A stretch of 64,000 nt of DNA from the NCBI RefSeq assembly GCF_003018115.1, contig NZ_CP027457.1. One strand, 5' to 3'. The stretch comes from Escherichia coli. GTDB taxonomy: Bacteria; Pseudomonadota; Gammaproteobacteria; Enterobacterales; Enterobacteriaceae. Of the stretch, positions 33,001-36,000 are shown in pieces. Position 1 is the stretch's first letter. Each line of letters starts with the position of its first letter. Made by a program: the position numbers.

Positions 33001-36000
33001 ATCATCATGAGTAAGTCGAAAATGATTGTGCGCACCAAATTTATTGATCGCGCCTGTCACTGGACCGTGGTGATTTGCTTCTTCCTGGTGGCGCTGTCCG
33101 GGATTTCGTTCTTCTTCCCGACGCTGCAATGGCTGACGCAAACCTTCGGTACGCCGCAGATGGGACGCATTTTGCACCCGTTCTTCGGCATTGCGATTTT
33201 CGTCGCACTGATGTTTATGTTTGTGCGTTTTGTGCATCACAACATCCCGGATAAGAAAGATATTCCGTGGCTGTTGAACATTGTCGAAGTATTAAAAGGC
33301 AATGAGCACAAAGTGGCGGATGTTGGTAAGTACAACGCCGGGCAAAAGATGATGTTCTGGTCGATCATGAGCATGATTTTCGTGCTGCTGGTGACCGGGG
33401 TGATTATCTGGCGTCCGTACTTTGCGCAGTACTTCCCGATGCAGGTTGTTCGCTACAGCCTGCTGATCCACGCGGCTGCGGGTATCATCCTGATCCACGC
33501 CATCCTGATCCATATGTATATGGCATTCTGGGTGAAAGGGTCGATTAAAGGGATGATCGAAGGGAAGGTGAGCCGTCGCTGGGCGAAGAAACACCATCCG
33601 CGCTGGTATCGTGAAATCGAGAAGGCAGAAGCGAAAAAAGAGAGTGAAGAAGGGATATAATCTCTTTTGAACTTTAAGCTGAAAATGGCGCTTTAAGAAG
33701 CGCCATTTTTTTATTGCGTAACCAGACGGCGTAATCGCGACACATCCACCGTTTTTTCAGCCTCTGCCAGACTCCAGGCGTTTTGCAGATTCAGCCAAAT
33801 TTGCGGCGAACTGCCGATCACCACGGAAAGTTTAATTGCCATTTCTGGCGTCAAAGCTGCTTTTCCTGTCAGCAATCGGCTTGCCGTTGAGGGAGCAATT
33901 TCCATTGCTCTGGCAAACTCGCGCAGGCTGACATTAAGTTCGTCCAGTGATTCCTGAATAATGTCCCCCGGGCGGGGATGATTGGCCATTTTCATTAGTG
34001 TCTTTACTCTCAGTAGCGTTCCTTCTCTGGGAACACTATCATTATTGTTCCTTCCTACGCAACAATAATCCATTTAGCCATTTCATGTTGGAGAGTGTGC
34101 GATGCTGCGACCCGAACATGGGAGTCGCAGCAAAGGCCTCTTAGTGACGGAAATCAATCACCATGCGGCCACGGATTTTGCCTTCTTCCATCTCGGTAAA
34201 GATGGTGTTGATGTCCGCTAACGGACGCAGGGCGACTTTCGGCACCACTTTACCTTCGGCGGCAAACTGGAAGGCTTCGGTTAGATCCTGGCGCGTGCCG
34301 ACCAGCGAACCGACCACTTCAATGCCATCCAGCACAAGGCGTGGGATATCCAGGCTCATAGACTCCGGCGGCAGACCGACTGCCACAACACGCCCACCTG
34401 CACGGACAGCATCAACTGCCGAGTTAAACGCAGCTTTAGCTACCGCTGTTACCACCGCAGCGTGAGCGCCACCGGTTTTCTCCTGCACAATTTTGGCGGC
34501 GTCTTCGGTGCGTGAGTTAATCGCTAAATCTGCACCCATTTCGGTTGCCAGTTTTAACTGCTCATCATTGACATCAATGGCGATCACTTTCGCGTTAAAG
34601 ACATTCTTCGCGTATTGCAGGGCGAGGTTACCCAGACCGCCAAGACCGTAGATAGCAATCCACTGCCCGGGACGAATTTTTGACAGCTTAACGGCTTTGT
34701 AGGTGGTGACCCCCGCACAGGTAATGCTGCTGGCCGCCGCCGAGTCCAGACCATCTGGCACTTTTACCGCGTAATCGGCGACCACGATGCACTCTTCCGC
34801 CATCCCGCCATCAACGCTGTATCCGGCATTTTTAACTGAACGGCAGAGCGTTTCGTTACCACTGTTACAGTATTCGCAATGACCGCATCCTTCGTAAAAC
34901 CACGCCACGCTGGCACGATCGCCTGGTTTTAATGAGGTGACACCTGGGCCAACTTCTGCCACCACACCGATGCCTTCATGGCCCAGAATTACGCCGGTTT
35001 TGTCACCAAAATCGCCATTCTTAACATGAAGATCGGTATGACATACACCACAACACTCCATTTTCAGCAGGGCTTCGCCATGTTTCAGTGAGCGCAGTGT
35101 TTTATCCGTAACGTCAACATGATGATCCTTCGTAACAACTGCAGCCTTCATAGTTCCTCCTTTTCGGATGATGTTCTGCATAGCAGGTGAGGCAAATGAG
35201 ATTTATTCGCCACTACCCAGTATGGATGAGATCTGAAAAAGGGAGAGGGAAATAGCCCGGTAGCCTTCACTACCGGGCGCAGGCTTAGATGGAGGTACGG
35301 CGGTAGTCGCGGTATTCGGCTTGCCAGAAATTATCGTCAATGGCCTGTTGCAGGGCTTCGGCAGAGGTTTTCACCGCCACGCCTTGCTGCTGCGCCATTT
35401 TGCCAACCGCAAACGCAATTGCGCGGGAGACTTTCTGAATATCTTTCAGTTCCGGCAGTACCAGACCTTCGCCGTTCAGGACCAGCGGCGAATACTGAGC
35501 AAGCGTTTCACTTGCCGACATCAGCATCTCATCGGTGATACGTGACGCGCCGGAAGCAATAACACCCAGCCCGATGCCCGGGAAAATAAAGGCGTTGTTA
35601 CACTGGGCGATAGGGTAGATTTTATCTTTCCATACCACTGGATTAAACGGACTGCCCGTGGCGACCAGCGCGTTACCTTCAGTCCAGGCGATAATGTCCT
35701 GCGGTGTGGCTTCCACGCGTGACGTCGGGTTAGACAGCGGCATCACGATCGGACGCGGACAGTGTTTATGCATCTCACGGATGATCTCTTCCGTAAACAG
35801 CCCGGTCTGTCCTGAGACGCCAATCAGAATATCTGGTTTTACATTGCGCACCACATCCAGCAGTGACAACACATCGCTGTCGGTATCCCAGTCACTGAGG
35901 TTTTCGCGCTTCTGCACCAGTTTGGTCTGGAAAGGCAGCAGGTTCGGCATCTTGTCGGTCAGCAAGCCAAAGCGATCGACCATAAAGACTTTCTGCCGTG

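Follow-up and report, generated by a model that had tools for sequence, protein, structure and literature searches.

Putative remnant of a higB-higA module at the Escherichia coli yddM locus, with the toxin gene probably deleted and the antitoxin gene retained

Introduction

The founder of the HigB-HigA family is the Rts1 module of Proteus vulgaris (PDB 4MCT, 4MCX, 6CHV, 6CF1), which has the toxin-first gene order that is also found in toxin-bearing E. coli. In Rts1, HigA alone represses Phig approximately 211-fold via two operators that overlap the -35 and -10 elements. In Pseudomonas aeruginosa, HigA represses both its own operon and mvfR, which provides a precedent for HigA action outside its own module. 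Within E. coli, the protein deposited as PDB 2ICP and 2ICT is named YddM of strain CFT073 in the literature, and the "parE-2/higA-2" module TA20 of NRG857c (AIEC) consists of a 279-nt toxin gene and a 285-nt antitoxin gene with a 1-nt overlap, as in Nissle 1917 (PMC7232551).

Here, we analysed the yddM locus in a 64-kb stretch of E. coli DNA, referred to in its entirety as the window. We propose that yddM is what remains of a higB-higA operon from which the toxin gene was deleted, that the promoter and operators of the operon were kept, and that a hairpin previously linked to yddM belongs to the 3' end of adhP; we give this explanation as a whole a probability of roughly 78%. The discovery value is small: RefSeq already names a HigA-family antitoxin, the structure is in the PDB, and the orphan state of yddM is already published in a 2020 paper, which notes that K-12 and HS retain the antitoxin alone at this locus (PMC7232551).

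Results

The yddM CDS (33711..33995, minus strand) encodes a 94-aa HigA-family antitoxin with an Xre-type HTH, as indicated by the ORF list, profile matches, and the RefSeq annotation, which was read from strain F9792 (100% identical) and places the start at 33995 with the N-terminus MKMANH. The original prediction that YddM resembles HigA-type antitoxins was borne out by its match to TIGR02607, "HigA family addiction module antitoxin" (91.8 bits, cut-off 47.7, 80 of 81 model positions covered), by its match to Pfam HTH_3 (PF01381; 39.2 bits, cut-off 23), and by identity at 93 of 94 residues to the "antitoxin HigA" of 2ICP/2ICT. Homology was also found to the Rts1 HigA (4MCX; E = 1.4e-18) and to the more distant P. 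aeruginosa HigA (E = 2.5e-8). YddM is thus a true member of the HigA family. The window protein carries a private substitution, M66I; every other sequence compared has Met at this position.

At full length the ORF spans 33711..34073 on the minus strand (120 aa), with 26 extra in-frame codons that begin at an ATG at 34073. This longer version was rejected as the true yddM start because both the HigA model and the PDB construct begin at MKMANH, and because the ATG at 34073 is located upstream of the inferred promoter. On the other side of the gene, a bidirectional terminator common to fdnI (plus strand) and yddM (minus strand) lies at 33682..33709, with a perfect 12-bp stem, a 4-nt loop, and bordering A-runs and T-runs, only 1 nt away from the yddM stop codon (folds of -17.3 and -16.2 kcal/mol, z of -4.7 and -5.0). 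An Rfam scan of 33550-34250 returned only sub-threshold matches; all but one fell over this terminator, the remaining one was weak and just inside adhP, and there was no match on the hairpin at 34103-34132 or on the operator block described below.

The spacer that separates the yddM start from the adhP stop measures exactly 145 bp (33996-34140). It had been claimed to hold no HigB-like ORF, and we likewise found none by six-frame translation and the ORF list, which gave only ORFs of 25-48 aa; when two HigB proteins were compared with all 64 kb by tblastn, the best E-value was 0.12, and nothing in the spacer matched. Nor did the ORF list, translation, or tblastn reveal in the spacer an unannotated small toxin ORF adjoining yddM, the finding that had been named as contrary to the prediction. 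No PF05015 toxin gene lies adjacent to yddM, and a complete type II higBA module is accordingly missing from the window. The idea that a small unannotated toxin gene is hidden beside yddM and that the module is complete could draw on the short ORFs of the spacer (25, 28, 34, 39, and 48 aa) and the in-frame 26-codon extension of yddM. However, none of these spacer ORFs resembles HigB, the tblastn search of the window gave no match below E = 0.12, the spacer can be matched, one block after another, to the non-coding region upstream of higB in toxin-bearing strains, and the downstream side measures just 50 bp and is occupied by the terminator. We therefore regard a hidden toxin as hardly credible.

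In our expanded search of other genomes, 1331 of the 5426 complete E. coli genomes, Nissle 1917 among them, were found to have a 92-aa HigB toxin gene exactly at the yddM/adhP site, where it overlaps the yddM start, as judged by blastn at the nucleotide level with a sensitivity of approximately 65-70%; it was always present once per genome and next to yddM. One of the 1331 matches lies on a plasmid record. The Nissle 1917 toxin (92 aa; PF05015, 63 bits), whose stop codon overlaps the yddM ATG, matches the Rts1 HigB over its full length (E = 1.2e-31). Full-length higB was also found directly upstream of the yddM homolog in E. albertii and three other Escherichia lineages, in most of 13 Citrobacter species, and in Buttiauxella, Cedecea, Enterobacter, Pluralibacter, Chimaeribacter, and Erwinia. 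All outgroup genera checked carry higB, many have fdnI downstream of the yddM homolog, and higBA is chromosomal and syntenic in all sampled genera. About 75% of sequenced E. coli, K-12 included, have no higB at yddM. As the toxin gene sits at the same site in the 1331 E. coli genomes and in the outgroups checked, its loss is the derived state, and these comparisons indicate that what remains at yddM is a decayed higBA module, the toxin gene having been deleted in the E. coli lineage of the window. The original description of yddM as an orphan antitoxin-like regulator is thus only partly upheld. The gene is of HigA type and lacks an adjacent toxin, but it is not a free-standing regulator, because the toxin occupies the same position in relatives and the promoter/operator block of the operon is still present in the window; the gene is instead the remnant of a complete higB-higA operon.

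In the ancestor that Escherichia shares with Citrobacter, a higB-higA operon would have occupied the interval between adhP and fdnI. The probable junction of the toxin deletion, AGACAC-TAA-TG (33995..34003, minus strand), was located by alignments and collinear short matches: AGACAC corresponds to higB codons 6-7, and CAC-T(G/A)A corresponds to higB codon 92 and the stop, overlapping the yddM ATG. The scar CACT(G/A)ATG, i.e., the last codon and stop of the toxin, is kept at the yddM start, and other toxin-less alleles retain CACTGATG at the junction, the same as toxin-bearing strains. The right boundary is a direct sequence read, and the left boundary is placed at AGACAC from a 6-nt match. The GAGGA ribosome-binding site inside the 3' end of higB was lost with the deletion, which left yddM with a poor one. 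We suggest that higB was removed by an internal deletion, probably between two CAC codons, together with several small deletions in the spacer, and that this would have fused yddM directly to the operon's own promoter. Since toxin-bearing and toxin-less alleles align only weakly in the part of the spacer that runs from the hairpin to the -35 element, and since the left junction is a 6-nt match, this history is a reconstruction. For the 38 nt between hairpin and -35, foreign filler DNA was considered and set aside; short-word BLAST and global alignment, in which CGCA[ATTT]CACTCT is collinear, weakly suggest several small deletions of toxin-bearing sequence.

The block at 34017-34064 is kept in the window and conserved across at least nine genera. 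It contains a predicted promoter, TTGCGT-N16-GATAGT, with the -35-like TTGCGT at 34057-34062 and the -10-like GATAGT at 34035-34040, and its transcription start would lie near 34028. Two candidate operators were recognized, both given on the yddM-sense (minus) strand: O1, TGTTGC-N7-GGAACA (34046..34064), overlaps the -35-like hexamer, and O2, TGTTCC-N7-GGAACG (34017..34035), lies just downstream of the -10, spans the inferred start, and contains the former higB Shine-Dalgarno region (AAGGA). The inner half-sites of O1 and O2 form a perfect palindrome, GGAACA-N10-TGTTCC (34030..34051), in which GATAGT is embedded; the palindrome is unique in the 64-kb window and is 95% identical between toxin-bearing and toxin-less alleles, whose flanks are not alignable. 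O1 and O2 are also the sole matches to the operator motif with at most one mismatch in the window, and the half-sites TGTTCC/GGAACA are invariant in 25 sequences from at least nine genera, with variable spacers. Collinear blocks join toxin-bearing and toxin-less alleles across the promoter/operator region. Within it, a 29-bp palindromic unit, ATTATTGTT-GCGTAGGAAGG-AACAATAAT (34041..34069), has 9-bp perfect inverted repeats, and its 11-bp core is inverted in strain 2017.15.01CC, an allele that 1053 genomes match at 99% or more.

A strict sigma-70 consensus scan called no promoter in the window spacer and nothing useful at the E. albertii and Citrobacter loci; our promoter assignment therefore relies on cross-species conservation instead of agreement with the consensus. 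In K-12, a SELEX peak of the RpoD holoenzyme has been assigned to the yddM/adhP spacer (PMC3946193). Close to the gene, an ACA triplet (33999..34001, minus strand), which begins 6 nt before the yddM ATG, fits a reported MazF processing site; yddM is entered with distance 6 in the MazF-regulon table, and a cut there would leave a 6-nt leader (PMC5001579). The predicted promoter and the four TGTTCC/GGAACA half-sites that overlap it were kept after toxin loss, and by analogy to HigA alone in P. vulgaris Rts1, a YddM dimer may bind the half-sites and repress its own transcription. Evidence for such binding is indirect and comprises the conserved half-sites over the promoter and the ChIP-exo data reported for K-12 YddM. 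In about 180 genomes, the palindrome and the -10 element are deleted and yddM is intact, which argues that at least some lineages can do without the promoter.

The gene upstream of yddM is adhP (34141..35151, minus strand; alcohol dehydrogenase, 336 aa), with its stop codon at 34141-34143. Between this stop and the yddM start lies the hairpin TGCTGCGAC-N12-GTCGCAGCA (34103..34132, minus strand), with 9-bp perfect arms. The hairpin and its sequence had been reported correctly, but the approximate position given earlier (34100-34128) was off by 3-4 nt, as the core GCTGCGAC-N12-GTCGCAGC occupies 34104-34131. Its RNA fold on the adhP/yddM-sense strand has an 11-bp stem and an 8-nt loop (-23.3 kcal/mol, z = -4.43); none of 200 shuffles was as stable. 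It is a member of a non-random class, because a search of the window for perfect 9-bp inverted repeats with 3-20-nt loops gave 44 overlapping matches, spread over some 20 places, as against 3.4 ± 1.7 in shuffles. The stem is kept in all Escherichia alleles examined and the loop varies.

The assignment of this hairpin to the 5' region of yddM did not survive comparison. The hairpin might act in cis on yddM, as a structure in the 5' leader or as a palindrome bound by a protein, given that it lies in the spacer upstream of the gene, that read-through from adhP would put it in a long yddM-containing mRNA, and that the window allele has no T-tract. However, the inferred -35 hexamer lies some 40 nt downstream of it and the inferred yddM start site some 75 nt downstream, and its sequence shares nothing with the conserved half-sites. 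In every Escherichia allele it begins 8-10 nt past the adhP stop (8 nt for the paired stem at 34132 in the window), whereas the interval that separates it from the operator block varies among alleles, by 48 nt. In toxin-bearing alleles it is followed by the T-tract CTGTTTTGCG (CTGTTTTG), and where adhP lies upstream in Citrobacter strains, the same position is taken by an unrelated hairpin and a T-tract. A cis-regulatory role in yddM is thus very improbable, and the hairpin is best read from these comparisons as the 3'-end or terminator stem-loop of adhP, outside the yddM circuit; as such, it is ordinary or essentially known. In the window, ATCGCACAC (ATCGCACACTCTCC) comes after the stem, i.e., the T-tract is deleted. 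Of the features of an intrinsic terminator, a stable G+C-rich stem past the stop codon is therefore present and the 3' T run is not, and we filed the hairpin as a terminator remnant or 3'-end stem-loop and not as a canonical terminator because the T-tract is missing. A simple terminator scan called the hairpin in none of the alleles, as it allows loops of at most 8 nt, which these surpass, and as the T-run is short. Following the loss of the T-tract, some adhP transcription may read through into yddM.

Between Nissle and K-12, yddM has 11 synonymous and no non-synonymous differences (pS 0.16, pN 0), a small sample in which the synonymous differences are not assignable to the toxin-less branch alone and in which recombination could have homogenised yddM between alleles. 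The window differs from other toxin-less alleles at five synonymous sites and one non-synonymous site, and one YddM protein sequence is common to the toxin-bearing allele and four kinds of toxin-less allele. Small as the sample is, yddM is under purifying selection. An alternative is that yddM has no function left and is turning into a pseudogene, with its conservation reflecting only the short time elapsed. The locus is indeed decaying: 545 genomes share the same toxin frameshift, about 180 have lost the palindrome and -10 element, the native ribosome-binding site was deleted along with the toxin, and the window protein has M66I at an otherwise invariant Met. Against this stand the absence of non-synonymous differences between Nissle and K-12 in spite of roughly threefold more non-synonymous than synonymous sites, the identical protein across four toxin-less allele classes despite diverged non-coding DNA, the retained promoter/operator half-sites, and the ChIP-exo binding and CRISPRi expression phenotype reported in toxin-less K-12. 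A mere leftover thus seems rather unlikely.

YddM might also serve as an "anti-addiction" factor that neutralises a plasmid or phage HigB (e.g., from an Rts1-type higBA) and blocks post-segregational killing. Orphan antitoxins are established as anti-addiction factors in other families. The lost toxin is a close full-length homolog of the Rts1 HigB and YddM is itself homologous to the Rts1 HigA at the E-values given above, and the single toxin match on a plasmid record would also fit; however, antitoxin-toxin pairs are usually specific, and the module is chromosomal, syntenic, and off mobile elements in all sampled genera. We consider this role improbable, and it can coexist with a role of YddM as a regulator.

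With no toxin left to neutralise, YddM would persist as a stand-alone DNA-binding regulator. In K-12, ChIP-exo binding data have been reported for YddM, and CRISPRi knockdown of yddM was reported to lower the expression of genes for motility and chemotaxis, among them tsr, which is a ChIP target. The best intergenic match to the operator motif upstream of tsr has three mismatches, which is at chance level, and one site with a single mismatch was found inside the tsr coding region, where roughly 0.1 per 3.2 kb is expected by chance. It is conceivable, though we hold it only tentatively, that YddM has been domesticated as a transcription factor acting on other genes (motility and chemotaxis in K-12) while keeping its old promoter and operators, and that loss of the T-tract, in the same series of deletions, partly couples yddM to adhP transcription in toxin-less strains only. 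If true, this would be a natural rewiring visible as polymorphism within one species.

Discussion

Overall, the yddM locus offers a clean natural series for toxin-antitoxin decay, with states that coexist within one species: the intact module, the higB frameshift (545 genomes), the toxin deletion (approximately 4000), the inversion of the operator core (approximately 1050), and the promoter deletion (approximately 180), with the antitoxin under purifying selection throughout. The frameshift is one and the same in all 545 genomes. Work on YddM as an "orphan transcription factor" in K-12 is, in turn, work on a former antitoxin.

The hairpin resembles Rho-independent terminators in being a G+C-rich stem-loop directly past a stop codon; such terminators have a T-rich run, as do the toxin-bearing Escherichia and Citrobacter equivalents, whereas the window hairpin lacks one. 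As for the module, the CFT073 HigA (2ICP/2ICT) and TA20 of NRG857c represent the same gene and locus as yddM in the window, but CFT073 and NRG857c keep the toxin gene that the window has lost. The Rts1 module is located on a plasmid together with its toxin, whereas the window locus is chromosomal and toxin-less. The candidate half-site layout in the window is compatible with the two-operator arrangement of Rts1, although the half-sites themselves differ: the candidate TGTTCC/GGAACA in the window versus a TGTA-type sequence for the P. vulgaris HigA. P. aeruginosa HigA retains its toxin and recognises the palindrome TTAAC-GTTAA, in contrast to the toxin-less yddM of the window. Like P. aeruginosa HigA, K-12 YddM has reported targets beyond its own module, as seen in the ChIP-exo data and the knockdown phenotype.

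YddM Is an Orphan HigA at a Locus That Lost Its Toxin

In the window, yddM lies in the E. coli gene order fdnGHI-yddM-adhP-maeA. Strain F9792 is 100% identical over a 1-kb stretch around the yddM spacer, and identity of at least 99% over this 1-kb query was found in only 5 of 5426 complete E. coli genomes. The annotated gene (33711–33995, minus strand; 94 aa, MKMANH...) is part of a longest ORF of 120 aa (33711–34073, minus strand), and the spacer between it and the end of adhP (stop at 34141–34143) is exactly 145 bp (33996–34140), as had been claimed. The HigA-like character of YddM is borne out by the curated HigA equivalog model TIGR02607 (91.8 bits, cut-off 47.7) and by the Pfam model HTH_3, which YddM also passes. 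The structure of YddM in its common sequence is deposited as PDB entries 2ICP and 2ICT (“antitoxin HigA”), and the protein is named “YddM from E. coli CFT073” in a review. The window strain has Ile for Met at codon 66 (33798–33800; SSPQIWLN), whereas the PDB entry and every other Escherichia and Citrobacter sequence compared have Met there.

The ORFs of the spacer are only 25–48 aa long, and neither they nor the rest of the 64-kb window show any likeness to HigB (best tblastn E = 0.12), in agreement with the original prediction. Across all complete E. coli genomes, the locus exists in several forms. Nissle 1917 carries a 279-nt gene between adhP and yddM, its stop codon sharing bases with the yddM start (CACTGATG). 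The encoded protein, of 92 aa, is a HigB-like toxin (PF05015, 63 bits) and is homologous over its full length (E = 1.2e-31) to HigB from the Proteus vulgaris plasmid Rts1, the founding member of the family. In an outgroup survey of one genome per species, a full-length higB was found directly upstream of the yddM homolog in E. albertii and three further Escherichia lineages, in most of 13 Citrobacter species, and in Buttiauxella, Cedecea, Enterobacter, Pluralibacter, Chimaeribacter, and Erwinia, often with fdnI downstream of the pair. The toxin-bearing state is therefore ancestral and that of the window derived: what survives here is a toxin-antitoxin operon from which the toxin gene has gone. 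The earlier description of yddM as an orphan antitoxin-like regulator thus holds in that it is an orphan HigA, and is to be amended in that its orphan state goes back to a documented toxin loss, other E. coli having kept the gene.

The core facts of orphan status and HigA identity are already known from the literature and annotation. A 2020 survey named the pair TA20 (parE-2/higA-2, 279 nt + 285 nt) in adherent-invasive E. coli, with the antitoxin partner alone encoded at this locus in HS and K-12 (PMC7232551). Our modest additions are a population census, an operator footprint across genera, and the loss of a terminator T-tract.

Allele Classes and the Deletion Scar

The locus is present in 5413 of the 5426 genomes. 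The toxin gene occurs in 1331, as a single copy always adjoining yddM, but in 545 of these the reading frame is broken by one shared deletion of a single base (GCCACCGACTC to GCCACCACTC; annotated as a pseudogene; e.g., strain 5-1, L002 949–1009); an intact toxin is therefore possible in fewer than 800 genomes. The toxin-less spacer of the window/K-12 type is found in about 2783 genomes. In about 1053 others (e.g., strain 2017.15.01CC, L045), the 11-bp core GCGTAGGAAGG of a 29-bp palindromic unit (window 34041–34069) is inverted between its 9-bp repeats ATTATTGTT/AACAATAAT, and about 180 have a 116-bp spacer (L046, AST20; L047, 1424KP), produced when 29 bp between two direct GAAGGAAC repeats were lost, a deletion that is equivalent to window 34023–34051 and removes the central palindrome and the -10-like element. 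The genomes with the 116-bp spacer retain an intact yddM encoding the common protein. Matches to the inverted-core allele include cattle, pigeon, river-water, and human isolates.

Aligned with a toxin-bearing allele, the 145-bp spacer falls into a series of collinear blocks: the hairpin (35/37 nt identical), CGCA..CACTCT, TTGTTGCG, the palindrome GGAACAATA(A/G)TGATAGTGTTCC (21/22 nt identical), GA(A/G)GGAAC, AGACAC, which matches higB codons 6–7, and CACT(A/G)ATG, the last higB codon and stop overlapping the yddM ATG. The overlap CACTGATG is still read in other toxin-less alleles. The simplest reconstruction from these alignments would be an in-frame deletion of ~85 codons between two CAC codons, together with smaller upstream deletions; the sequence itself shows its right boundary, and the left boundary is placed tentatively at AGACAC, on the strength of 6 nt.

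The O157:H7 strain TR01 has a hybrid spacer, also of 145 bp (L006 602–746, a single record), in which the hairpin is followed by sequence of the toxin-allele type, the 29-bp toxin-less palindromic unit, and the 3′-terminal 47 nt of the toxin gene, in which the GAGGA ribosome-binding site lies. It may represent an independent deletion, a recombinant, or an assembly artefact.

The Hairpin Belongs to adhP

The long hairpin predicted between the yddM start and the adhP stop is real, with 9-bp perfect arms (34103–34111 and 34124–34132) separated by 12 nt; the place proposed for it (about 34100–34128) was right, and the exact position was shifted by 3–4 nt. As RNA it forms an 11-bp stem with an 8-nt loop (-23.3 kcal/mol, z = -4.43). 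Its assignment to the yddM 5′ region did not stand. The hairpin starts 8–10 nt past the adhP stop in every Escherichia allele, while the interval to the operator block varies by 48 nt from allele to allele, which speaks strongly against a yddM leader element. Only the inverted-core allele departs from the common stem, in a single closing pair, and there new pairing arises within the loop; the loop itself differs among alleles (TCCCATGTTCGG in the window, TGCCATGTTCGG in K-12, TGTCCGGTTTGA in E. albertii, GTGCCAGTCCTGGT in the inverted-core allele). In toxin-bearing alleles the stem is followed by CTGTTTTGCG, and two Citrobacter genomes that also have adhP upstream carry an unrelated hairpin followed by GTTTTGCG at the same place (-23.9 kcal/mol, z -4.2). 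Given the fixed distance to adhP, the varying distance to the operators, and these T-tract equivalents, the hairpin is the stem of the adhP terminator. In the window, the 18 nt that bore the T-tract are deleted, so what remains falls short of an intrinsic terminator as defined, and transcription from adhP could plausibly run on into yddM.

Flanking Sequences

The fdnI-yddM spacer measures 50 bp in the window (33661–33710), 228 bp in M7638 and Nissle, and 407 bp in K-12 and EC21Z-101 (compared loci L003 462–688 and, for K-12, L007 2493–2898). The extra DNA consists of one or two tandem units of ~178 bp, each with REP-type sequences (GCCGGATGCGGCGTGAACGCCTTATCCGGC and GTAGGCCTGATAAGCG...) and another copy of the terminator hairpin shared by fdnI and yddM. 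This bidirectional terminator (33682–33709) has a perfect 12-bp stem, a 4-nt loop, and flanking A- and T-runs; an Rfam scan of this stem gave sub-threshold matches only (STnc320, 28.8 bits, gathering score 50). An IS200/IS605-family transposase gene (tnpA) is found at the locus in some strains, directly downstream of yddM in 1424KP (L047 923–1045) and within the region matched by the 1-kb query in LH85-a (H29). A 214-bp contig of the Clostridium sp. CMCC3677 assembly (L038), encoding the first 36 YddM residues at 100% identity next to a K-12-type operator block, is almost certainly E. coli contamination. Identical 21-mers in the motif scan also drew attention to a repeat of at least 300 nt that occurs three times in direct orientation, at 97% identity, in the first 12 kb of the window (1212–1511, 8672–8971, and 11007–11306).

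Is yddM Still Functional?

Between toxin-bearing Nissle and toxin-less K-12, yddM differs at 11 synonymous and 0 non-synonymous sites, and the window allele differs from other toxin-less alleles by 3–5 synonymous changes and one non-synonymous change, the private M66I. An identical YddM (WP_000781370.1) is common to Nissle and four different toxin-less spacer types. In K-12, which lacks the toxin, ChIP-exo binding data exist for YddM, and CRISPRi knockdown of yddM reduces the expression of genes for motility and chemotaxis, among them the ChIP target tsr; upstream of tsr, the half-site motif had no match beyond chance. MazF processing of yddM mRNA has been reported (PMC5001579), and an ACA with its first base 6 nt before the yddM ATG fits this. 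Counting against the continued importance of yddM, the toxin deletion removed the GAGGA ribosome-binding site, which lies inside the end of higB.

A Conserved Candidate Operator Block

The layout TGTT(G/C)C-N7-G(G/C/A)AACA-N9-10-(T/C)GTTCC-N7-GGAAC recurs upstream of higB in each of 25 sequences from at least nine genera; its half-sites show little or no change, and the intervening spacers vary freely. In the window, this block comprises candidate operators O1 (34046–34064) and O2 (34017–34035) and a central perfect palindrome (34030–34051), and a motif scan of the 64 kb found no further sites of these kinds. A -10-like hexamer (34035–34040) lies where the central spacer meets the third half-site, GATAGT in the window and GATAAT or TATACT in other genera, with a -35-like element, TTGCG (34057–34062), 16 nt upstream; transcription would start near 34028. 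In K-12, an RpoD-holoenzyme SELEX peak was assigned to the yddM/adhP spacer (PMC3946193). Core inversion replaces the -35-like TTGCGT but, in turning TGTTGC...GGAACA into TGTTCC...GCAACA, regenerates a palindromic half-site pair of the same kind. A YddM dimer might read either the N7 or the N10 half-site arrangement.

In the Rts1 system, two operators overlap the -35 and -10 elements and HigA alone represses ~211-fold. The half-site layout of candidate O1 and O2 would fit such an arrangement, and on this precedent YddM would repress its own promoter with no need of the toxin.
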